NCBI GenBank assembly: GCA_964525275.1
Contig: CAZGDM010000017.1
Location: forward strand, 835-32,834
DNA length: 32,000 nt
Direction: 5' to 3'
Origin: an uncultured Thermodesulfobacteriota bacterium
GTDB lineage: Bacteria; Desulfobacterota; B13-G15
Part shown: piece after piece, positions 1 to 32,000 of the stretch
Layout of the letters: each line of letters opens with the position of its first letter
How positions within the stretch are numbered: the first letter of the stretch is position 1
Notes under the pieces: generated by a model
Told to the model about the DNA's origin: nothing
Databases searched by the model: none
Seen by the model: the letters and a program-made list of their open reading frames with translations, nothing else
Position numbers and translations under genes: made by a program

Positions 1-1162
1 CACATGACAGCAACGCCTGACGGTAGACCTCCTTCAAAGGTATCCCCCTTCTCACGGCCAGGGAACGACAGCTTTCGTATTCGGGGGCGACGTTGACCAC
101 TTCTCCCCCGCGCCTTCCCACCTTGACCTTGACGGGACCGAAGGGTGTGGAAACCTCGACGGTCTCCCTTTCGAGGACCCATCGCTCGACCCTCCAGCCC
201 CTCACCCCGAGGGTACTCGACTCCCTGAAGAGCACCCCCATCAGTCCATCCCTCTCCGCCTCTGCCGCCAGGCAACGCAATGTCACCCCCATCCTGCCCT
301 TTTTCATCCGGATGGGGACCAAGGTGACGTCCCGAGCCCCTGCCTCTCGCAGCCGTTCCTCCACATAGGGGAGGATCTCCGGGTTCAAGTCGTCAAGATC
401 GGCCTCCAGAAGCCAAAGTCCCTCCGCCCCCTTGGGCCTTCTACCCACCATCACTCGCAAGAGGTTGGGGAGTTGAGGGGGATCCATGGTCCCTGCCCCG
501 TATCCCACCCCCTCCAGGATCATCTCCGGTATGGGACCAAAGGAAGTGGCCAGGACCCTCAGGAGGGCGGCACCAGTGGGGGTGACGTTTTCCATCTCCA
601 TGGGCGATGCCAAAATGGGCACTCCCTTAAGGATCTCCAGCGTCGCCGGGCAAGGCGAAGGTAAGGGGCCGTGTTCCGTCAACACCTGCCCCCTGGCGAG
701 GGCCACAGGGGAGGCGAAGACCTCCTCGAGGTCCAGATACTCTACAGCCGCCACGGCACCCACTAAATCGAGGAGGGTGTCAGGGTCCCCCAGTTCGTGG
801 AAGTGGGCCCTGGGGGTCCCGTGGACCGCCTCTTCCGCCTTCCGCAAAAGGTCGAGGGCCTTAAGGGCCAGCTCTTTGGAACGGGCCGACAGGGGGGCCT
901 TAGAGAGCCTCTCCGCCATCTCCTCTGGGGACATCCTCTCCGAGGAGATCTCCACTTCGAGTTTAGTCCCCCCTATACCACAACGGCTGACCCTCCTCAC
1001 CTCTGCCTTCACCTCAAGGCCCACTCCGCGCCAGGCCTCCTCCAGCACTTGGAGGGGAACCCCTACATGGAGCAGGGCCCCGAGGATCATATCCCCGCTC
1101 ACACCGGCAAAACAGTCGAAGTAAGCCACCCTGCCCTGCACAGCTTGTAGGCTACCACGCAT
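1..1162 (-). CDS. larC: LarC-family nickel-insertion protein (DUF111; nickel-pincer cofactor biosynthesis), 3' end runs off the window
   Basis: Absent from the ORF track because its stop lies outside the window. My translation of the minus strand from ATG at 1162 gives MRGSLQAVQGRVAYFDCFAGVSGDMILGALLHVGVP..., matching the LarC/DUF111 N-terminal YxDCFxGxSGDM signature. The frame stays open to position 2, ending ...RRGIPLKEVYRQALLSC, which looks like a LarC C-terminus. The plus-strand ORFs 93..368 and 486..1124 are S/P/R/T-rich shadows. Confidence 0.75.
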   Translation of the reverse strand, partial: MRGSLQAVQGRVAYFDCFAGVSGDMILGALLHVGVPLQVLEEAWRGVGLEVKAEVRRVSRCGIGGTKLEVEISSERMSPEEMAERLSKAPLSARSKELALKALDLLRKAEEAVHGTPRAHFHELGDPDTLLDLVGAVAAVEYLDLEEVFASPVALARGQVLTEHGPLPSPCPATLEILKGVPILASPMEMENVTPTGAALLRVLATSFGPIPEMILEGVGYGAGTMDPPQLPNLLRVMVGRRPKGAEGLWLLEADLDDLNPEILPYVEERLREAGARDVTLVPIRMKKGRMGVTLRCLAAEAERDGLMGVLFRESSTLGVRGWRVERWVLERETVEVSTPFGPVKVKVGRRGGEVVNVAPEYESCRSLAVRRGIPLKEVYRQALLSC

Positions 1163-1226
1163 ACTTTTATGGTTGCAAGGACTGGGAAACGGGCTATTAT
1201 TCCTCATACGAAAGGGGGTGACGAAG

Positions 1227-1514
1227 ATGGCGATCAAGGTGATCATTGAAAGGAGAATCAAGGAGGGGAAGGAGGGAGAGCTGGCCCAGCTGCTCAGGCA
1301 ACTCCGCGCCAAGGCCCTACTGGCAAGCGGATACATCTCCGGCCAGACCCTGCGCTCGGTGGATGACCCGCGACTCTATGTGGTGATAAGCACGTGGAAA
1401 AGCCTCGAGGACTGGCGGGAGTGGGAGAAGGATCCGGAAAGGGCGGAACTACAGCGGAAGATCGACGAACTATTGGAGGAACCTGCCAAATTTAGGGTCT
1501 TCTACTTCGTATGA
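1227..1514 (+). CDS. ABM (antibiotic biosynthesis monooxygenase / Dabb) domain protein, about 95 aa
   Basis: ORF 1173..1514. The internal ATG at 1227 follows an aaaggggg SD. MAIKVIIERRIKEG...LYVVISTWKSLEDWREWEKDPER fits the small ferredoxin-like ABM fold pattern. Confidence 0.7.
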   Translation: MAIKVIIERRIKEGKEGELAQLLRQLRAKALLASGYISGQTLRSVDDPRLYVVISTWKSLEDWREWEKDPERAELQRKIDELLEEPAKFRVFYFV

Positions 1515-2118
1515 CCTCTAGGACCTCCAACAGGTCTTCGATGTAATGGTCGGCTTCCAAATCCCTGTTTTTGTAGGCCACAAAAGGCACTCCAGCCCGC
1601 TGGGAGGCTTGGGAGTCGCGTTCTGTGTCCCCCACGAAGAGGGCCTCCCGCGGCGCACAGCCGAAATGCCCCAGTACCTTTAGCAAGGGTTCGGGGTGGG
1701 GTTTGGGATTGGATACATCCAAAGCCGAGACCACGAAGTCGAAATGGTCCTTCAACCCGAAATGCTCAAGTACGTGCCCTATGGTGTAAGTCCTGTTGGT
1801 GGAGATGGCCTTCCTAACTCCAGGAGGGACCCCTTCCAAGAGTTCCCGTAGGTGGGGCTCGGGCCTCATCAAGCGGATGAAGGGCAGGTAATCGAGCCCC
1901 TCCCTCACCTTCCTGTAGCGCTCCATGTCCCGGAACTCCCTGCGCTCAAGGAGATAACTCACCCCCTCCTCGGCGGTGCTTGAGTGGATGAACTCCACTT
2001 CCTCTTCGTCCATCGGAGGGAGGCCGAGTTCAGCGAGGATGTGGTTGTAGTAAGCGATGTTCGCTTCCTTGGAGTCGAACATCACCCCGTCGCAGTCGAG
2101 GATGAGCACCCTCACCAT
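1492..2118 (-). CDS. HAD-superfamily hydrolase (phosphatase, subfamily IA-like)
   Basis: Motif I is LILDCDGVMFDS (DxDG). A later KPHPEP motif and FVGDTERD motif IV are present. 208 aa. Its 3' end overlaps the convergent ABM gene by 23 nt. Confidence 0.85.
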   Translation of the reverse strand: MVRVLILDCDGVMFDSKEANIAYYNHILAELGLPPMDEEEVEFIHSSTAEEGVSYLLERREFRDMERYRKVREGLDYLPFIRLMRPEPHLRELLEGVPPGVRKAISTNRTYTIGHVLEHFGLKDHFDFVVSALDVSNPKPHPEPLLKVLGHFGCAPREALFVGDTERDSQASQRAGVPFVAYKNRDLEADHYIEDLLEVLEVIRSRRP

Positions 2119-2151
2119 CCCGGGGAGCTTTACCGTAAAAGGGGAAGAAGG

Positions 2152-3309
2152 TCAATGCCGATCTTGGGGGAGGGAACAGTTCTTGTCCTCGTACATCCTC
2201 TTGTCGGCCTTGTGAATGAGGTCGCGGACCGTTTGAGCATCTTTAGGATAAGAGGCCACCCCTCCGGAAAGGCAGATCTTCACCTCCTCGTCGTCAAAGG
2301 TGAAGCGGAGTTTGGAGACGGCCTCCTTTATCCTCCGGCAGGCCGCCTCAGCCCCTTCGACGTCAGTGTCGGGCATAAGTACAGTGAATTCATCCCCTCC
2401 GTAGCGACACAGCACATCCGACCCGCGGATCTCCTTGCTGATGGCGGCACTTACCGCCTTGAGCACCTTGTCCCCCGCGAGGTGACCGTAACGGTCGTTT
2501 ACCTCTTTAAACCTGTCGATATCGAACATGGCCACGGCGAAATCCCTACCCGTGCGTTTGGACCGACGGCGTTCCCGACCCAGCTGTTCGAAGAAGTAGC
2601 TCCTGTTGTAGATGCCGGTGAGGGGATCCTTTGTGGAGAGCTCCTTTATCTTCTGGAAGAGCATGATCTTCTCGAGCAAGATCCCGGCGTAATTGCACAC
2701 CATCTTCAGAGGGTAGAAATCGTCGGTCACCTTACCACCAGGGGGAGGGGTATCCGCGGTAACTATGCCGAAGGCGGGGAAGTGCTCACAAAAGATCCAC
2801 GAGAAGGATGCTGTATCCTTCAAGCGGAGTTTACGGCCGTTGCGTCCGTAAAGGGGACAACTCCTCTGCCTGCACTTCACAAGGTCGTAACAGGCCTTCC
2901 TGCCGATGCTGCAGATAGGGGCGATCACCACCTCTTCGGGCGGGGGACCCAACTGTTGATAGTAGGTGAAAAAGGGCGTATCGGAGGGCTTCACCACCAG
3001 GGCCCCCAGCTCCTTCAAGGCGTTGACGGCGGGATCATAGGTCTCCTCCAAGGGGATCTCTAACCTCCCGAAGTCCTCCAAGGGATAGCCGTAGCCATAC
3101 AGGGCCTCCAAACGCCTCCTCTCCTTGTCCAGGAACCAGAGCCCTATCCTCCGGTAGTCAAGCCCCCGATGGAGTGAATCGACCATGGTCCGCAGGATGC
3201 CCTCCAGGGTCTCCTCGGCGGAGATCTCCCTGAGGATCATCTGGACCTCGTTGTACTGGAGCACCAGTATCTTGAGGTCCTCTAATAGCTGCTCATCACA
3301 CCTTGCCAC
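2152..3309 (-). CDS. Diguanylate cyclase: GAF-like N-terminal sensor with a Cys-rich insert plus a C-terminal GGDEF domain
   Basis: Has DPLTGIYNR, FDIDRFKEVNDRYGHLAGD and the RYGGDEF active site. An RGSD (RxxD) I-site lies exactly 5 residues upstream of GGDEF. Overlaps the upstream kinase gene by 14 nt. Confidence 0.9.
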   Translation of the reverse strand: MARCDEQLLEDLKILVLQYNEVQMILREISAEETLEGILRTMVDSLHRGLDYRRIGLWFLDKERRRLEALYGYGYPLEDFGRLEIPLEETYDPAVNALKELGALVVKPSDTPFFTYYQQLGPPPEEVVIAPICSIGRKACYDLVKCRQRSCPLYGRNGRKLRLKDTASFSWIFCEHFPAFGIVTADTPPPGGKVTDDFYPLKMVCNYAGILLEKIMLFQKIKELSTKDPLTGIYNRSYFFEQLGRERRRSKRTGRDFAVAMFDIDRFKEVNDRYGHLAGDKVLKAVSAAISKEIRGSDVLCRYGGDEFTVLMPDTDVEGAEAACRRIKEAVSKLRFTFDDEEVKICLSGGVASYPKDAQTVRDLIHKADKRMYEDKNCSLPQDRH

Positions 3310-3733
3310 CCTGGCCTCCGCGATACTTGCGTAGCTTCAGGTAATTTTTGCCCCCTTCACGGCGGTATTCAATCTCGTCCATGGCCTCCCGCATGATGTG
3401 CACCCCCATCCCCCCTTCGGGCAGAGAACCGGAATCGGTGTGGTCGAAGGCGGGAGGGGGGACCTGACGCGGGTCGAACTCCTCTCCTTCGTCTATGAGC
3501 GTAACCTGACAGAATTCATCCGCCACTTCTAACTCCGCCTCTATCTTCCTTGAGGAATTGAAGCAATAAGCGTGCCTTACGATATTGCTCAAACCCTCGA
3601 AAACGGCTATCTCCACGGCCCTTAAGGTCTCTTCCTCCACCCCAAGCCCTTCACAGACGCCCTTTATGGCCAAGGCACAGAGGCGGACATCCTCCATCGA
3701 GGCGGACATGACCATCTTCAGTCGATACCTCAC
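3296..3733 (-). CDS. RsbW/SpoIIAB-type anti-sigma-factor serine kinase (HATPase_c family)
   Basis: 145 aa. N-box is EGLSNIVRHAY; G-boxes are DEGEEFD and GGMGVHIM. 4-nt start/stop overlap with the STAS gene. Confidence 0.85.
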   Translation of the reverse strand: MRYRLKMVMSASMEDVRLCALAIKGVCEGLGVEEETLRAVEIAVFEGLSNIVRHAYCFNSSRKIEAELEVADEFCQVTLIDEGEEFDPRQVPPPAFDHTDSGSLPEGGMGVHIMREAMDEIEYRREGGKNYLKLRKYRGGQGGKV

Positions 3734-4071
3734 TTGCCGATGACCTCCAGGGCTCCCTCCACGTCCTCTGCTATGTCGAAGATTCGGTGCAGCCTCGTCA
3801 GTTCCATCAGGTCGTCAACGGCTTTCTGCAGGGAACATAGCACCAATCGCCCCCCTCTGGCCACGTGTTTCAACACCGAGACCAGAGCCCCCAGTCCGGA
3901 GCTGTCGACGAAGCTCACCTCCCTCATATCGATGATGGCCTGCTTCGTCCCCGCTTCGTCCAGGGACTGGATCACCTTGTCTTTGAACTCAGAGGCCACC
4001 AAGGCATCGAGCCTCTTGTCAAGGGGCCTGAAGATCAGTACATCGCCCTTCCTCTCGATCTCAACCCTCAT
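3730..4071 (-). CDS. STAS-domain anti-sigma-factor antagonist (SpoIIAA/RsbV-like)
   Basis: FVDSSGLGALV contains the conserved phosphorylatable Ser (DSSG). The ORF track extends to a GTG at 4140. I prefer ATG 4071 (MRVEIERKGDVLIFRPL, 113 aa), which is typical STAS length and leaves a divergent promoter gap. Confidence 0.8.
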   Translation of the reverse strand: MRVEIERKGDVLIFRPLDKRLDALVASEFKDKVIQSLDEAGTKQAIIDMREVSFVDSSGLGALVSVLKHVARGGRLVLCSLQKAVDDLMELTRLHRIFDIAEDVEGALEVIGK

Positions 4072-4168
4072 AGCCTTGTAGACCTTCTCTTTAGTTCTCT
4101 TTTCGGCACCACCGCCCATCCCTTTAGCGTTTCCCACCACCCTCAGGCTGTGTTAAAAGTAAGGGAGG

Positions 4169-4780
4169 ATGCTGGGTGAGGTAACGAACTGGCTGGTGAA
4201 GACCATTGGAAATCTCGGCTACGGGGGAATCGTGGCCTTGATGTTCCTCGAGTCTTCCTTCTTCCCCTTCCCCAGCGAGGTTGTCATCCCACCGGCGGGC
4301 TATTTGGCCTCAAAGGGGGAGATGGATCTGCTGACCATCATAGGCTCGGGCACCCTCGGCAGCCTTCTGGGGGCCCTCTTCAACTACTGGCTCGCTGCGC
4401 GAATGGGAAGGCCTTTACTTGAGCGTTACGGCCGCTACCTCTTCATAAAAGGGGATGTATTGGCCAAGGCCGATCGCTTCTTCCAGCGGCACGGCCACAT
4501 CAGCACCTTCCTGGGAAGGCTGCTCCCCGGGATAAGACAGTACATATCCCTGCCCGCAGGTCTGGCCGAGATGGATGTAGGCCTGTTCTGCTTCACCACC
4601 TCCCTCGGAGCGGGCCTTTGGGTAACCGTGCTGGCCCTGGTGGGTTACTGGGTGGGAGAACAGGAAGTCCTGCTTAAAAGGCACCTCCGGATCGCTACGG
4701 CAGCAGTGGCTGTCTTTGCGGCCTTGATCTGCCTGGCCTACATCCTCCGCTTAAAGGGCAGGTTTACTTCCCGCAGCTAA
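4169..4780 (+). CDS. DedA-family (VTT/SNARE-associated) inner-membrane protein
   Basis: [30 protein letters not shown] and [17 protein letters not shown] are DedA signature stretches. Multi-TM. Strong agggagg SD before the ATG. Confidence 0.9.
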
Positions 4781-4789
4781 AGGGGTATC

Positions 4790-6394
4790 ATGAAATCCTT
4801 CACAAAGCGGGATGTGATGAAGCTCCTTTTGGTCCTCCTCACAGGAGGTCTTTTGTTTTTCTCCAACCTCGGCGGCTGGGATCTCTGGAACCCAGACGAA
4901 CCCCGCTACGCCGAGATAGCACGGGAGATGATCCAGGGGGGGACTTGGGTCATCCCTCACCTCAACGGGGAGGTCTACTTCGACAAACCGCCCCTCTTTT
5001 TTGCCATGATCGCCGGAGCTGCCAAGGCCTTGGGGGAGGTCAACTCATGGTCCGCCCGGCTACCGTCGGCGATCTTCGGAACCTTGGGGCTCATCGTCCT
5101 TTACGCCTTGGGCAAAGCCCTGCGCGACGGGACAACGGGATTGCTCGCCGCCCTAATGACGGCTACCACCGTCGAATACCTCTGGCTCGCCCGTCGTGCT
5201 AACATTGACGCCACCCTCACCTTCTTCACCACCGGGGCCGTATTCTTCTTCTGGACTGGGGCCAAGAGCGAAAAGGGAAAGGTCTTTCTGTATCTAATGG
5301 GCTATATCTTCATGGCGGTGGGATTCCTCACGAAACTGCAGCCTGCGGTGTTGATCCCCGTCCTTGCCCTCGGTCCCTACTTCATCCTGAAGGGGCGTTG
5401 GAGTTTTTTCGTAGATAAAAAGCACATCCCGGGCCTACTGGTCTTTGCGGGCATCGTAGGGGGATGGCTCCTGCTGGCCCTGAAGGAAGGTGGGCCGGAA
5501 TACCTCAAAGGCCTCCTATGGGAGAAGACGGCCTCCACCTTTTTTAAAGTGACCACGACTGGACATAAGCGTCCTTTTTTTTATTACTTTTACAACTTCC
5601 CCGCCCAATTCTCCCCTTGGAGCTTTTTTCTGCCCTCTGCTATCATCTACGCCCTAAGGACCCACAAGGAGGAGTTGGTCTTCCCATTGAGTTGGTTTGC
5701 GGCTGGTTTCCTCTTTTTCTCCCTGGCTCAGGCGAAAAGGGGACTTTATCTCCTGCCCCTCTATCCAGCTGCTGCCCTTCTGGTGGCCGGGCTGTGGAGG
5801 GATGAAGATTTGAGGAAGGGCCTTTTGAGGACCCCCCTGCTGGTCCTTGCGGCCGTGTTGGTCTTTACAGGAATGGCCGTGCCCTTTCCAGTAATGCTAT
5901 GGGGCAGAAAGTATCTGCAGCACGCCTTGGAGATAGGGGTCGTCACCGGGGTCATATTGACCTCAGGGGGGATAGTCCTCTGGCTATCGGTGAAGAAGAT
6001 CCAGAGGCCTTCTCTGGCCCTCGTCCTGGTGGTGAGCCTCACCTCAATCCTATGGCTTTACGGGGTATGGAGGATCTTTCCGGAGGTCAACCCCTACAAA
6101 TCGGCCCGTCCTTTGAGCGAAAGGGTCCTGGAGGTCATGGCCCCCGAGGACAGCTTGGCGGTGTACAAACTCCAGGGGGCCGAATTCAACTTCTACACTG
6201 GCCGTATCCCCATCCTGAGGATTTACCGCCCTGAGGATCTCAAGGCCTACCTCGACAGGCCAGGGAGGGCCTTCTGCATCCTCAGGGAAAAGCACTTGCG
6301 GAAACTCAGCCAGGAGTTGACCTCAAAGGTCCACGTGGTGACAAGGGGCCGCGTTGGCCATAAGAAACTGGTGGTAATAAGCAACAGGGGGTAG
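4790..6394 (+). CDS. ArnT-like GT-C glycosyltransferase (family 39 / PMT_2), polyprenyl-phosphate-sugar dependent
   Basis: 534 aa polytopic protein. First-loop motif is NPDEPRYAEIAREM, followed by YFDKPPLFF. Both are hallmarks of ArnT/PMT_2 enzymes. Confidence 0.9.
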   Translation: MKSFTKRDVMKLLLVLLTGGLLFFSNLGGWDLWNPDEPRYAEIAREMIQGGTWVIPHLNGEVYFDKPPLFFAMIAGAAKALGEVNSWSARLPSAIFGTLGLIVLYALGKALRDGTTGLLAALMTATTVEYLWLARRANIDATLTFFTTGAVFFFWTGAKSEKGKVFLYLMGYIFMAVGFLTKLQPAVLIPVLALGPYFILKGRWSFFVDKKHIPGLLVFAGIVGGWLLLALKEGGPEYLKGLLWEKTASTFFKVTTTGHKRPFFYYFYNFPAQFSPWSFFLPSAIIYALRTHKEELVFPLSWFAAGFLFFSLAQAKRGLYLLPLYPAAALLVAGLWRDEDLRKGLLRTPLLVLAAVLVFTGMAVPFPVMLWGRKYLQHALEIGVVTGVILTSGGIVLWLSVKKIQRPSLALVLVVSLTSILWLYGVWRIFPEVNPYKSARPLSERVLEVMAPEDSLAVYKLQGAEFNFYTGRIPILRIYRPEDLKAYLDRPGRAFCILREKHLRKLSQELTSKVHVVTRGRVGHKKLVVISNRG

Positions 6395-28230: not shown

Positions 28231-29679
28231 ATGAGGGAATTCTCCAATAGAGAGATCACCTGGGATCACTTAATATTGGGACTGAAAAAGACCACCAGGG
28301 ATTTCCTGGAGAACGTCCTTCAGAACATCATAGATTCCATCGTCGTGACGGACCTGAGCGGGAGGATCATTTTCTTCAACAGGTTTTCAGAGGAGCTCTT
28401 TCGGTACCGGGCGGAGGAGGTCTTAGGGCGTCATATCTCCATCCTCGGGGCGAAGCGTCCCAACGTACTCGAAAGGATTAGGCAAGGCAAGACCTTCCGT
28501 GGCGAAATCGTCCTCAAGACGAAGGACGGAAGGGCTTTCCCCGCGCGGGTGGTCTGCGTCCCCATTAGCGATGAAAACAACCTCCCCATAGGTATGGTGG
28601 GGGTGGCAAGGGATATCACCGAGGAAAAGCGACAGCAAGAAGAAAAGAGGTTTCTCCAGAGGCAGCTGCAAGAGCTACAGAGGCGTCTTTCCCAGAGCTC
28701 GCTATACGGGGACATCGTGGGCACCAGTGAGGCCATGCTCAAGATCTACGCTCTGATGGAGAAGGTAGCCCCCCTGGACTGCAACGTCCTCATAGTGGGG
28801 GAAAGTGGCACTGGGAAAGAATTGATCGCGAGGGCTATCCATAACAAAAGCCCCAGGAAAGACCATCCCTTCGTTATAGCAGATTGTGCCCTCCTGTCCG
28901 CAGGACTTCTCGAATCGGAGCTCTTCGGCTACGAAAAGGGGGCCTTCACAGGGGCCTACACCAGGAAGAGGGGTTATTTCGAAGTGGCCGACGGAGGTAC
29001 CCTCTTCTTGGACGAGATCGGGGATCTCCCTCTTGAAGTCCAGGGAAAACTCCTCAGGGCAGTGCAAGAGCGGGTGATCTTCCGGGTAGGTGGGGTAGAT
29101 CCTATAAAGGTCGACGCCCGGATAATAGCCGCCACCAACCAAGATCTGGAGGAAAAGGTCAAGAGGAAACAGTTTCGAGAAGACCTCTATTATAGGTTGA
29201 GCGTAGTAACCATTAAGGTCCCCCCTCTCAGGGAGAGGAAAGAGGACATCCCCCTATTGACCACCTACTTCCTCAACAAATATGCGGCCAGATTCGGCAA
29301 AAGGGTCGAGATGAAACAGGAAGTTTACGACGCCTTTCGCAAATACCCCTGGCCGGGAAATGTGAGGGAACTGGAAAACCTCATCCAAAATTTGCTGATC
29401 GTATCTGGGGGCGATACCGTCTGTCTTAGAGACCTTCCCCCTAAGATACTGGCCCATCTGAAACCATCGCCCTTAGATATGCCCCCCCACAGTTACGGGG
29501 AGATGAAAAGGAAGGTGGTGGATGACTTCACGAGGAATTTCCTCACCACCATGCTGAAGAAAAACAGGGGAAATGTGAGCAAAACGGCCAGAGAGATCCG
29601 CCTCCGCAGGACCTCCCTGCAGCGGTTAATGAGGAAATACGGCATCCGATCCGCCGATTTCCGCAATCAGCCTCTTTAA
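28231..29679 (+). CDS. Sigma54-dependent transcriptional activator: PAS sensor, AAA+ domain, Fis-type HTH
   Basis: PAS ([18 protein letters not shown]...[10 protein letters not shown]), Walker [15 protein letters not shown] loop (EKGAFTGAY), [10 protein letters not shown], and the C-terminal [29 protein letters not shown]. No receiver domain. Confidence 0.92.
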
Positions 29680-29685
29680 AGAGGC
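29670..29685. promoter_or_regulatory. 16-bp palindrome GCCTCTT-TA-AAGAGGC (candidate enhancer/UAS site 1)
   Basis: Perfect 7-2-7 inverted repeat. It contains the activator gene's TAA stop (29677-29679). The same half-sites recur at 29747. Confidence 0.5.
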
Positions 29686-29746: not shown

Positions 29747-29762
29747 GCCTCTTAAAAGAGGC
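29747..29762. promoter_or_regulatory. 16-bp palindrome GCCTCTT-AA-AAGAGGC (candidate enhancer/UAS site 2)
   Basis: Half-sites identical to site 1. Centre-to-centre distance is 77 bp. About 42 bp upstream of the sigma54 -24 element. Confidence 0.5.
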
Positions 29763-29803: not shown

Positions 29804-29819
29804 TGGCAGGGATTTTGCC
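29804..29819 (+). promoter_or_regulatory. Sigma54 (-24/-12) promoter TGGCAGGGATTTTGCC
   Basis: TGGCAG at 29804-29809 and TTGC at 29815-29818 have the exact GG-N10-GC spacing of the TGGCAC-N5-TTGC consensus. The element lies about 33 nt upstream of the moaD-like ATG and immediately downstream of a sigma54 activator gene. Confidence 0.7.
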
Positions 29820-29851: not shown

Positions 29852-30109
29852 ATGAAGATAAAGGTGCGCATGGGGTATGAGGAGAGGGCTTTGGAGTTGC
29901 CCGAAGGCAGCACCGTGGGGGAGTTGTTGGTCCATCTGTCATCCGCCTCGGGACGACAAGAGACTTCGGAGTTCTTCGACAACAAAGGGAGGCTTTACCC
30001 TGATTGTCAGGTCATCGTAAACGGGCTCTTCAAGACTGCAGAACCGCAGGAGGAGCTCAAGGACGGCGATCACGTGGAGATCGACCGTATTGTGATAGCC
30101 GGCGGTTAG
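29852..30109 (+). CDS. MoaD/ThiS-family ubiquitin-like beta-grasp protein with C-terminal Gly-Gly
   Basis: 85 aa, ending ...LKDGDHVEIDRIVIAGG followed by the stop. The LPEGSTVGELL pattern is typical of MoaD/ThiS sulfur carriers. Confidence 0.75.
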   Translation: MKIKVRMGYEERALELPEGSTVGELLVHLSSASGRQETSEFFDNKGRLYPDCQVIVNGLFKTAEPQEELKDGDHVEIDRIVIAGG

Positions 30110-30136
30110 ACCCGTTACGGAAGGAGGGGGAATTCA

Positions 30137-31036
30137 ATGGAAGGGCTGGGGTATCTACTGGCACTGCCGAGGTTTGAATACTTCTCGCCCAAGACTGTCG
30201 AGGAGGCCTGTTCCCTGCTCGAGCGCTACGGCCGGGAGGCGAAGCTCTTAGCGGGAGGTACCGATTTGCTGGTGGCCATGAAAAAGGGGAAGGAATCACC
30301 CCGTTATCTGATCGGCATAAAGGCCCTTTCCGGTCTGGACTTCATAGAGTACGACGGAGAACTGTTGAGGATTGGGGCCCTGGCGACCTTACAGTCGGTG
30401 GCCGATGCAGCAATAGTCCAGGAGCGGTTCGGCCTCCTGGCCACGGCGTGCAGAAAAGTGGGAACCCCCCAGGTGCGAAATATGGGGACCCTGGTGGGCA
30501 ACATCTGTAACGCTGGCCCCTCCCAGGACACCGTCCCCTCGCTGCTCGTGTTGGGGGCGAAAGTAAAGGCGGTGAGCAGCAAAGGGGAGAGGACCATCCC
30601 TTTAGAAGGTTTCTTCCGCGGCCCCTTCGAGACGGTCCTCGAGGATGGGGAGATGGTTACAGAGGTCCAGATCCCGACCCCTCCGCCCCACAGCGCAGGT
30701 TGCTATCGGTGGATGACCAAGAGGACCACAGTGGATGAGACCCTGGTGGGGGTGGCCGTGTTGGTAGTGGCGGACCCCACCCATGAACGCTGCGAGGACG
30801 CAAGGATTGCCCTCTGTTCGGTGGCCCCTACCCCCTTCAGGGCGAAGAGGGCAGAGGCACTCCTTCGGGGAAAGGAGATCGACGAAGGGTTATTGGAGGA
30901 GGTGGGACGCACAGCCGCCGAGGAGACGAGGCCCCGGGGCAGGGCGGAGTACAGAAAGCTCCTCACCTCTCTCTTGGTCAAGAAGGCCCTGACCGAGGGG
31001 TGGAAAAACCTCACAGGGCAGGAGGTAACGGCATGA
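30137..31036 (+). CDS. FAD-binding medium subunit of a xanthine dehydrogenase / CO dehydrogenase-family molybdoenzyme
   Basis: Has FEYFSPKTVEEACSLL, AKLLAGGTDLLVAMK and GTPQVRNMGTLVGNICNAGPSQD. Strong aaggaggggg SD. 299 aa. Confidence 0.88.
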   Translation: MEGLGYLLALPRFEYFSPKTVEEACSLLERYGREAKLLAGGTDLLVAMKKGKESPRYLIGIKALSGLDFIEYDGELLRIGALATLQSVADAAIVQERFGLLATACRKVGTPQVRNMGTLVGNICNAGPSQDTVPSLLVLGAKVKAVSSKGERTIPLEGFFRGPFETVLEDGEMVTEVQIPTPPPHSAGCYRWMTKRTTVDETLVGVAVLVVADPTHERCEDARIALCSVAPTPFRAKRAEALLRGKEIDEGLLEEVGRTAAEETRPRGRAEYRKLLTSLLVKKALTEGWKNLTGQEVTA

Positions 31037-31512
31037 AGCGTGTGATCAGCCTCACTGTAAACGGGGAGACCCATGAGGTGGTGGTGGAACCACGGACGAC
31101 CCTTCTGGAGGTCCTAAGGGACTCCTTGGGACTCACGGGGGCAAAGGAGGGCTGCAGCCTGGGAAACTGCGGGGCCTGTACCGTGTTGCTTGACGGAAAG
31201 CCCGTCCTGTCCTGTTTGTTGCTCGCCGTGGAGGCCCAGGGCAAGGAGATCGTCACCATCGAGGGGCTGGCCGAGGGGGGTAAGCTCCACCCCCTCCAGG
31301 AGGCCTTCGTGGAGCACGGCGCCGTGCAGTGCGGTTTCTGCATCCCAGGGATGATCCTTTCCGCCAAGGCCTTCCTCGATGAAAACCCCCACCCCACCGA
31401 GGAGGAAGTCAAGGAGGCCATATCGGGCAACCTCTGTCGCTGTACGGGCTACAGTGACGCCGTCAGGGCCATCCTCGCGGCGGCAAAGGCGAAGGAGGAA
31501 GGGGAGAGATGA
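31033..31512 (+). CDS. [2Fe-2S]x2 small subunit of a xanthine dehydrogenase-family molybdoenzyme
   Basis: I place the start at ATG 31033 (ATGA overlap with the FAD subunit stop). Motifs: EGCSLGNCGACTV, QCGFCIPGM, NLCRCTGY. Confidence 0.9.
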   Translation: MKRVISLTVNGETHEVVVEPRTTLLEVLRDSLGLTGAKEGCSLGNCGACTVLLDGKPVLSCLLLAVEAQGKEIVTIEGLAEGGKLHPLQEAFVEHGAVQCGFCIPGMILSAKAFLDENPHPTEEEVKEAISGNLCRCTGYSDAVRAILAAAKAKEEGER

Positions 31513-32000
31513 GGCAGTACAGGGTAGTCGGGAAGCCTCTGAAGAGGGTGGACGCCGGGGTGAAGGTCACGGGAGAGGCCCAGTTCGCCGCCGACATCAA
31601 GCTTCCCAACATGCTTCACGCAAAAATCTTGAGAAGTCCCCACCCCCACGCGAAGATCTTGAGGATCGACACCAGCAAGGCAGAGGCCCTCCCCGGCGTG
31701 AAAGCGGTGATCACTGGCAAGGACGTCGGGCCCATAAGGTTCGGCTTTGTGGATACGCCTCGCTACCCCGCTGACCAATATCCCTTGGCCATTGACAAGG
31801 TGCGCTATGTGGGGGAGGAGGTGGCCGCGGTGGCCGCCGTGGACGAGATAACCGCCATCGAGGCCCTTAAGCTCATCGAGGTGGAATACGAGCTCCTCCC
31901 TGCGGTCTTCGATCCTGAGGAGGCCATGAAAGAGGGGGCCCCGAAAATCCACGATGAGATCGTACCCAACACCACCTGTGCATGGCAGGACTGGGGTGTC
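31509..32000 (+). CDS. Molybdopterin-binding large subunit of a xanthine dehydrogenase / aldehyde oxidoreductase family enzyme (N-terminal fragment; continues beyond the window)
   Basis: Not in the ORF track because it has no stop in the window. ATG 31509 (ATGA overlap) translates to MRQYRVVGKPLKRVDAGVKVTGEAQFAADIKLPNMLHAKILRSPHPHAKILRIDTSKAEALPGVKAVITGKD..., the standard N-terminal a/b-hammerhead domain. Confidence 0.85.
   Translation, partial: MRQYRVVGKPLKRVDAGVKVTGEAQFAADIKLPNMLHAKILRSPHPHAKILRIDTSKAEALPGVKAVITGKDVGPIRFGFVDTPRYPADQYPLAIDKVRYVGEEVAAVAAVDEITAIEALKLIEVEYELLPAVFDPEEAMKEGAPKIHDEIVPNTTCAWQDWGV

Follow-up and report, generated by a model that had tools for sequence, protein, structure and literature searches.

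Can a molybdenum enzyme belonging to the xanthine oxidase (XO) family that is encoded beside genes of anaerobic phenol activation be a 4-hydroxybenzoyl-CoA reductase (hereafter 4-HBCR) if it departs from the textbook enzyme in gene order and lacks its iron-sulfur loop, and what is the small protein ending in Gly-Gly that heads its operon? The question is raised by the right end of a 32,000-nucleotide stretch of DNA (the window; G000:C17:835-32834, contig CAZGDM010000017.1) from an uncultured Thermodesulfobacteriota bacterium, known from a 1.9-Mb metagenome-assembled genome (MAG; G000, 130 contigs, 96.7% complete). Here the gene of an 85-aa protein, which we call the GG protein, is followed by those of a flavin adenine dinucleotide (FAD; medium, M), a 2x[2Fe-2S] (small, S) and a molybdenum (Mo; large, L) subunit. 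4-HBCR is the textbook case of an XO-family enzyme run in reverse, and the extra [4Fe-4S] loop of its FAD subunit, which in Thauera HcrB is the electron acceptor from ferredoxin, is held to enable the reversal. An earlier note on this DNA had described the open reading frames (ORFs), the AGG C terminus, the order FAD, 2Fe-2S, Mo and a sigma54 promoter, all of which are present in the sequence, and had taken the order and the missing loop as arguments against a 4-HBCR-type dehydroxylase. We lean towards the view that the operon does encode a variant of this type of reductive dehydroxylase, one of strict anaerobes, with a dedicated carrier of cofactor sulfur; what it acts on, where its electrons come from and what the GG protein does are predictions.

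Contig C17 stops one base past the window end, so that the Mo gene is interrupted; its C-terminal 257 aa are encoded at G000:C71:3-776 (locus L037). We used as a probe the 656-aa orthologue from G001, whose residues 1-164 correspond to the window piece (95% identity) and whose residues 530-656 correspond to G000:C71:3-383 (92% identity). Since paralogues reach at most 44%, C71 carries the C terminus of the window gene. Contig C128 was considered as the continuation and ruled out, being 36% identical to the G001 orthologue and overlapping another contig, C64, at 96%. Downstream of the Mo gene, C71 encodes a 438-aa PaaK-type adenylate-forming CoA ligase and the DctP/DctQ/DctM proteins of a tripartite ATP-independent periplasmic (TRAP) transporter, followed by unrelated genes; no moaE, activating-enzyme (E1) or xdhC gene was found there. 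The enzyme belongs to the XO/carbon monoxide dehydrogenase (CODH) family, with FAD, Fer2/Fer2_2 and Ald_Xan_dh_C Pfam domains all over their cut-offs and the catalytic Glu motif GGKEVGEG on C71; the MoCoBD_1 region falls within the unassembled gap of G000 and is present in the G001 orthologue.

Within this family the Mo subunit is closest to HcrA. Searched through the G001 orthologue, its best match among Protein Data Bank (PDB) structures is Thauera 1rm6_A (326 bits; next 251), and TIGR03194 (HcrA) is its best NCBIfam model, leading by more than 100 bits. The C-terminal piece on C71 scores 190.7 bits on this model, aligned to the C-terminal 247 positions of the profile, and a full-length Dehalococcoidia orthologue (L043, 76% identical) scores 656.9 bits, below the cut-off of 994.55. 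In large-subunit trees (FastTree, 82 rows; IQ-TREE, 38 and 50 rows), which lack Thauera, Rhodopseudomonas and Desulfatiglans anilini sequences, the window subunit groups with L043 in a 13-row clade (SH-aLRT 100) that is mostly loop-less and contains a nested loop-bearing subclade of S-L-M order. Its sister is a loop-bearing M-S-L clade of 9 rows from Bacillota and Thermodesulfobacteriota, and the two nest in a 30-row clade (SH-aLRT 100), most members of which are flanked by PaaK-like ligases. The window enzyme belongs to this large group of uncharacterised HcrA-like enzymes from strict anaerobes, and combines a CoxM/XdhB-type FAD module and sigma54 control with a MoaD-like accessory gene that is lineage-specific.

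The FAD subunit is where the window enzyme departs from HcrB. In an alignment of relatives' FAD subunits it reads ...GNICNAGPSQDTVPSLLVLG... uninterrupted, with no insert at residues 112-150 and none between GNICNAGPSQD and TVPSLLVLG; loop-bearing relatives have 38 extra residues with four to five Cys at that point, and this insert aligns gap-free to the Cys-rich stretch of Thauera HcrB (1rm6_B). With TIGR03195 (HcrB) the window protein reaches 131.7 bits (cut-off 404.55), the match being split in two at profile position 116. The best PDB match is CutM (1ffv_C), with 1rm6_B matched only in two stretches, and the best NCBIfam models are those of glyceraldehyde dehydrogenase beta and XdhB. When 80 related loci were retrieved and their FAD subunits aligned, they fell into two sharp classes, one with the 38-residue insert, for which TIGR03195 is the best match in a single stretch of 213-272 bits, and one without it, for which XdhB or glyceraldehyde dehydrogenase beta is the best match; the window protein belongs to the latter. 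The alignments with relatives and with 1rm6_B thus confirm what the earlier note had read from the 299-aa subunit, namely that the Cys-rich [4Fe-4S] insert is missing, and the four cluster-binding Cys that it proposed to look for are absent.

Set beside HcrCAB of Thauera aromatica (PDB 1RM6/1SB3) and HbaBCD of Rhodopseudomonas palustris, the window operon shares the Mo, FAD and 2x[2Fe-2S] subunits, the catalytic Glu motif and the linkage to a phenol/4-hydroxybenzoate pathway, with window-type large subunits having some 38-40% identity to HcrA, as judged by eye in the alignment. It differs in its order (M-S-L instead of S-L-M), in a FAD subunit of XdhB/CoxM lineage without the 38-residue four-Cys loop, and in the addition of a sigma54 promoter and a MoaD-like first gene. 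Order and loop state turn out to be poor guides, however. M-S-L is the majority order among the typable ones of about 90 HcrA-like loci, where it occurs with both FAD classes, and the loop state changes at least five times on the 50-row large-subunit tree. Matches above the TIGR03194 cut-off, found in 8 of the 401 genomes in a scan of the phylum (one of them with 562 bits against 1rm6_A), all come from M-S-L loci with loop-less FAD subunits, so the canonical HcrA clade is itself largely non-textbook. Neither loop loss nor M-S-L order is diagnostic of function; we rule out gene order as a sign of a different one, and the case that the earlier note built on the two features is weak.

The genomic context speaks for phenol. 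On the opposite strand upstream, the window carries PpsA/PpsB-like genes, a phenylphosphate carboxylase beta gene (PpcB equivalog, 594.7 bits, over the cut-off), an aryl-CoA ligase, two UPF0261 genes, UbiX, an ADP-forming acyl-CoA synthetase and a HAD hydrolase. Phenylphosphate synthase (Pps) and UbiD genes also flank the loop-less L044 and the loop-bearing L071 and L105, all within the 30-row clade, and the loop-less L115, outside it; L044 and L115 are Dehalococcoidia loci. A comparable cluster is known from Desulfatiglans anilini (H567DRAFT_02049-02059), whose proteins reach higher abundance when the cells grow on phenol (Xie and Mueller 2018, PMC6114531). Judged by gene descriptions, it shares with the window ppsA/B, ppcB, UbiX, a DHB-AMP-ligase-like gene, a PaaK-like '4-hydroxybenzoyl-CoA ligase', and an HcrA-like alpha subunit with 'CODH medium and small subunits'; that paper reports no enzyme assay of the reductase (PMC6114531).

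That an enzyme of this build can remove a phenolic hydroxyl is shown by UcdCFO/Ucdh, the urolithin C 9-dehydroxylase of Enterocloster bolteae, an XO-family reductive phenol dehydroxylase described in 2025 (PMC11760930, PMC12771579). It has the same M-S-L order, its FAD subunit carries no [4Fe-4S] loop, NAD(P)H drives or enhances the dehydroxylation, and the hydroxyl that it removes is para to an electron-withdrawing carbonyl. Unlike the window enzyme as we read it, Ucd, whose identity to 4-HBCR is about 33%, has a free lactone as its substrate instead of a CoA ester, and its accessory genes are moaAC, mogA, moeA, mocA and xdhC, with a MoaD-like gene not reported (PMC11760930, PMC12771579). Given the M-S-L majority, the recurrent switching of the loop and the phenol-gene linkage of both FAD classes, a dehydroxylase role remains the best reading of the window enzyme, which differs from 4-HBCR in its electron entry module and in the accessory GG protein.

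The GG protein belongs to the ThiS/MoaD family as a diverged beta-grasp protein of the MoaD/SAMP1 type. It scores 30.1 bits on Pfam ThiS (PF02597; cut-off 22.5) and 31.6 bits on TIGR01687 (moaD_arch), below the cut-off of 49.5; its PDB profile matches are the Pyrococcus furiosus MoaD-like protein 1vjk, CysO and a SAMP1 homologue. An AlphaFold2 (AF2) model (pLDDT 76) retrieves SAMP1 first in Foldseek (3po0, TM 0.79), with MoaD chains in the top ten. Family, profiles and fold agree with the earlier note, which had called the 85-aa product a beta-grasp protein ending in AGG. Close relatives are few: a word-indexed protein search with the 85-aa sequence returned only three near-identical matches, and an exhaustive profile search of 1.84 billion representatives only two close clusters, together with weak generic MoaD-like relatives in which the motif FFD..G..YPDC.V.VNG recurs along with the terminal GG. 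This GG, directly followed by the stop codon, is invariant in an alignment of 20 relatives. A role as a ferredoxin-like [2Fe-2S] beta-grasp protein in place of the lost cluster was rejected, there being one Cys here and none in the Syntrophaceae versions.

Homologues of the GG gene recur at HcrA-like operons in at least three arrangements and two phyla. The gene lies 5' of the FAD gene in G001, G004, L043 (Dehalococcoidia), G014 and G104 (loci including L127 and L134), between the Mo gene and the PaaK-like ligase gene in Syntrophaceae/Syntrophorhabdaceae-type loci (L049, L051, L052, L054, L061 and L089), and directly before the Mo gene in L130, L131 and L154 (genomes G378, G358 and G012). In five further genomes homologues adjoin genes of the tungsten-containing aldehyde:ferredoxin oxidoreductase (AOR). 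Loci of the Syntrophaceae/Syntrophorhabdaceae type (L051:5027-6619; also L049, L052-L054, L061 and L089) carry, in addition, a CoxG-family gene and an extra, divergent FAD_binding_5 protein (motif RWAYYMATIGG, 5-residue insert) upstream of M-S-L. MoaD genes linked to AOR have been read as cofactor-specific carriers (Iyer, Burroughs and Aravind 2006, PMC1779556), and the window gene resembles them in encoding a small beta-grasp protein with C-terminal GG beside a pterin enzyme and apart from the general moa genes. It differs in that its neighbour is an XO-family (MCD-type) enzyme, that no MoeB gene adjoins and that TIGR01687 stays below its cut-off; a linkage of MoaD to the XO family is not mentioned in PMC1779556 (where 'xanthine' occurs 0 times), nor was it found in the other literature searched. 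The persistence of the linkage through rearrangements, with two unrelated folds of pterin enzyme, and the invariant GG favour a role of the protein as a sulfur carrier in the maturation of the cofactor.

An E1 for such a carrier would have to come from elsewhere in the genome. At G000:C14:10421-12800 (L026:3300-5802) an AOR gene is followed by a MoaD-like gene and a ThiF-like E1 gene, with a radical-SAM gene adjoining; the search for E1 found the ThiF-like frame interrupted by a scaffold gap, and a second ThiF domain on C51, within a 603-aa membrane protein that is unrelated. Besides the GG gene, G000 has two ThiS-family genes, the MoaD-like gene on C14 and a TtuB-like gene on C27. The latter encodes a GG protein and lies directly before a TtuA-like PP-loop ATPase gene (L027:2818-3973). 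MoaA, a MoaC-MoaB fusion and MoeA are encoded on G000:C43 (L125:3822-6932), and the sole XdhC/CoxI-family chaperone gene found in G000 lies at a contig start (G000:C89:2-1036, L126).

In the mechanism that we propose, the TRAP system and the PaaK-type ligase would supply an aryl-CoA, from which the Mo subunit would remove the para-hydroxyl. With the [4Fe-4S] loop missing, electrons would enter directly at FAD from a donor other than ferredoxin, for which NAD(P)H has a precedent in Ucd, and reach Mo by way of the two [2Fe-2S] clusters. The MoeB/ThiF-like E1 of C14 would adenylate and thiocarboxylate the GG protein, which, co-induced with the apo-enzyme, would provide sulfur for the pterin cofactor, be it the dithiolene or the Mo=S ligand, in parallel to the MoaD proteins encoded beside tungsten AOR genes.

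Several findings weigh against this reading, one group of which concerns the enzyme. About 365 residues of the Mo subunit, substrate-channel parts included, are unassembled between C17 and C71. All three subunits fall below the HcrA/B/C equivalog cut-offs: the G001 Mo orthologue (656 of about 785 aa) has 516.7 bits on TIGR03194 (cut-off 994.55), and the small subunit has 186 bits on TIGR03193 (HcrC; cut-off 257.8), less than on the models of glyceraldehyde dehydrogenase gamma (218.5) and XdhC (199.3) and level with pucE (186). The eight above-cut-off HcrA matches form part of a separate 12-row clade (SH-aLRT 100), the deeper branching order being unresolved. The earlier note had asked whether the large subunit would cluster inside the HcrA clade; in the 50-row IQ-TREE phylogeny it stands outside that of the above-cut-off matches. 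It also has an insert of about 21-27 residues with an AWxDWG motif after the hammerhead domain (window positions 31960-32000 and onward in L036, the G001 orthologue); canonical HcrA, Thauera 1rm6_A and the paralogues in the genome lack it. The insert is common to a 22-row subclade made up of the window clade and its loop-bearing sister, and the remaining 8 rows of the 30-row clade (L084, L091) have a shorter version. In addition, the phenol operon has a ligase of its own, and the PaaK ligase and TRAP transporter may thus serve another aromatic acid.

G000 has, moreover, six further XDH-family large subunits (seven in all), several beside PaaK-like ligase or TRAP genes, and among them a second HcrA-like system that could be the real 4-HBCR. 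It extends over C64 (reverse, 1-4884), C128:1-1858 and C50:1-2606 in the order DctP-DctQ-DctM, Mo subunit (C64/C128, 96% identical in the overlap), FAD, 2Fe-2S and second Mo subunit, so that two large subunits flank one M-S pair; its FAD subunit, at C128:1349-1858, bears the HcrB-type Cys-rich loop, and its C50 Mo subunit reaches a higher HcrA score than the window enzyme (767 bits on TIGR03194). The best-surviving alternative, possible though in our judgement rather unlikely, builds on these findings and on the resemblance of the window FAD subunit to the XdhB/glyceraldehyde dehydrogenase type found in dehydrogenases. In it, C64-C128-C50 would be the pathway's 4-HBCR and the window enzyme would act on another substrate delivered by the TRAP system and the PaaK-like ligase, such as a different hydroxy- or amino-aroyl-CoA, or a (hetero)aromatic acid, which it would hydroxylate as the family usually does. 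However, it is the window operon that is divergently linked to Pps/PpcB/UbiX, and the D. anilini homologues are phenol-induced (PMC6114531). The loop-less Dehalococcoidia loci L044 and L115 are phenol-gene-linked as well (both were counted with the same clade in this comparison, L115 being placed outside it elsewhere in our analysis), and the C50 subunit itself is far below the TIGR03194 cut-off and outside both the canonical and the window clades. Either of the two systems may thus have the phenol role.

The XDH-family large subunits of G000, at least six or seven, are found on C17/C71, C18, C50, C52, C64/C128 and C123, with assembly breaks within several. The cluster on C18 encodes a hydantoinase-B-like protein and a PaaK-like ligase besides FeS, Mo and FAD subunits, the last of 318 aa and with an insert in the C-terminal domain; it resembles indoleacetate-type clusters. 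Tandem arrays of five to eight HcrA-like large-subunit genes occur in another uncultured Thermodesulfobacteriota MAG (L103 and L104 on CAZCTP010000052.1, L110 on CAZCTP010000060.1), with one PaaK-like ligase gene among them and no FAD or FeS subunit genes in view.

The second group of adverse findings concerns the GG protein as a sulfur carrier of the reductive dehydroxylase. MoaE (PF02391) was not found by Pfam search in G000 or in any of 21 genomes from the same order, and a classical MoaD-MoaE synthase can therefore not be taken for granted; in the phylum sample MoaE is present in 199 of 401 genomes, and the gap has been remarked for Geobacter metallireducens, too (PMC2700814). The earlier note had seen neither E1 nor MoaE in the window, and this holds for the operon including its continuation on C71. 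Its alternative that the GG gene is the genomic moaD with moaE downstream is ruled out, no moaE having been found on C71, in G000 or in the 21 genomes of the order, and with TIGR01687 below its cut-off and no MoaE found in G000 the protein does not qualify as MoaD proper. The idea that the subfamily is tied to MoaE absence was also dropped, since MoaE is present in 10 of the 25 subfamily genomes and not in the other 15, close to the background rate. Furthermore, the GG gene is absent from many loop-less relatives (L044-L047, L084-L097), the protein diverges fast (60% identity, compared to 90-96% for the enzyme subunits), and several copies look damaged: in G004 a single TAG-to-TGG change removes the stop codon and adds 24 residues (L035:1822-2181), the Dehalococcoidia copy has an apparent N-terminal frameshift (L043:2413-2628), and the two tandem copies of G012 have lost the terminal GG (L128:1486-2361). 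The GG gene is accordingly accessory and perhaps dispensable.

Fast divergence, which goes so far that Pfam misses the Syntrophaceae versions entirely, would also fit a non-catalytic partner, that is, a beta-grasp subunit or an assembly chaperone, possibly docking at the loop-less site of the FAD subunit. Every typable GG-gene locus among the 80 does have a loop-less FAD subunit, and no E1, MoaE or JAB gene lies within the GG-gene operons. We nevertheless doubt this explanation, because a free and strictly conserved C-terminal Gly-Gly is what marks out C-terminal activation chemistry, not a structural subunit, and because there is no conserved Cys/His set for a cofactor (one Cys in the window lineage and none in Syntrophaceae); close relatives adjoin AOR, whose unrelated fold has only the pterin cofactor in common, and the many loop-less operons without the gene do not fit a docking partner either. 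Least of all do we believe in a ubiquitin-like modifier (SAMP/TtuB-like), or in a thiocarboxylate donor that turns an aryl-adenylate into an aromatic thioacid as QbsE and PdtH do in thioquinolobactin and PDTC (pyridine dithiocarboxylate) synthesis, although SAMP1, the top fold match, is modifier and sulfur carrier alike, GG genes lie directly beside adenylate-forming ligase genes in L049-L089, L129 and L153, a thioacid route by AMP ligase and ThiS/MoaD-like protein is documented (PMC1779556) and the G004 copy has a precursor-like C-terminal extension; for no E1-rhodanese or JAB peptidase gene lies in or near the operons, unlike in the documented thioacid and conjugation systems, the constant neighbour across arrangements is a Mo or W enzyme and not a ligase, and the G004 extension comes from a single TAG-to-TGG change that is not conserved.

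A broader and distinctly speculative idea, which we regard as improbable, concerns lineages without recognisable MoaE (the order of the window organism, Geobacter metallireducens, and some half of the genomes sampled from the phylum). GG proteins linked to enzymes, like the one described here, might there support an undescribed, MoaE-independent insertion of pterin sulfur, with one carrier per enzyme class, and dithiolene or Mo=S sulfur may be delivered at or near the cognate apo-enzyme of the XO family or AOR.

The operon is headed by its own regulatory region (Table 1). A gene for a PAS-sigma54 activator and a conserved -24/-12 promoter precede at least five co-oriented genes, and no plus-strand terminator-like or sigma70-like sites were found within the operon. 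The promoter lies 125 nt 3' of the end of the activator gene and 34 nt 5' of the ATG of the GG gene; its pattern occurs twice in the window against 0.67 expected. It is conserved at the orthologous loci of two further genera of the family (G001 and G004), where GGTGGCAGG and TTTTGC are invariant and only the two intervening bases vary among the three genera. The activator, too, has an orthologue (86% identity) directly 5' of the same operon in G001 and G004, and is likely the activator of the operon; the spaced GG-N10-GC promoter and the adjacent enhancer-binding protein mark the operon as sigma54-dependent. Of the two palindromes that are candidate binding sites, the second has its right half-site with flank, AAAGAGGCAGA, and the GCCTC part of its left half-site invariant in G001 and G004. 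The start of the small-subunit gene overlaps the stop of the FAD gene (ATGA). The remaining left half of the window holds unrelated housekeeping genes.

Table 1. Regulatory elements and genes of the operon, in window coordinates
Feature	Coordinates	Strand	Basis
PAS - sigma54-interaction AAA+ - HTH_8 enhancer-binding protein	28231-29679	+	Pfam Sigma54_activat 2.6e-70, PAS 9.5e-16, HTH_8
Palindrome GCCTCTT-N2-AAGAGGC, candidate activator binding site 1	29670-29685	no strand	read from sequence
Palindrome GCCTCTT-N2-AAGAGGC, second copy, candidate activator binding site 2	29747-29762	no strand	read from sequence
Sigma54-type -24/-12 promoter TGGCAGGGATTTTGC	29804-29818	+	pattern match, GG-N10-GC
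85-aa MoaD/SAMP1-like beta-grasp ORF (GG protein), first cistron, end ...IAGG-stop	29852-30109	+	Pfam ThiS
299-aa FAD (medium) subunit, XdhB/CoxM type	30137-31036	+	Pfam FAD_binding_5 + CO_deh_flav_C
159-aa 2x[2Fe-2S] subunit	31033-31512	+	Pfam Fer2_2 3.9e-34, Fer2 1.4e-9
N-terminal 164 aa of HcrA-like molybdopterin subunit	31509-32000	+	Pfam Ald_Xan_dh_C (hammerhead)

The window operon does not represent a new kind of system; our analysis refines its annotation and suggests testable biochemistry. The loop-less enzyme and the MoaD-like first gene are no one-off, as both recur in many uncultured anaerobes, where they are common and uncharacterised. Most HcrA-like enzymes of strict anaerobes are non-textbook, with M-S-L order and a loop that has been swapped in or out at least five times, and this includes enzymes encoded beside phenol-activation genes and those that NCBI would name HcrA. 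Sulfate reducers, syntrophs and Dehalococcoidia therefore probably do not all use one electron donor when they degrade phenol and 4-hydroxybenzoate anaerobically. The recurrent MoaD-like gene extends the old linkage of AOR and MoaD to the XO family and, together with the missing MoaE, offers a handle on an acknowledged gap in the molybdenum cofactor biosynthesis of the phylum.

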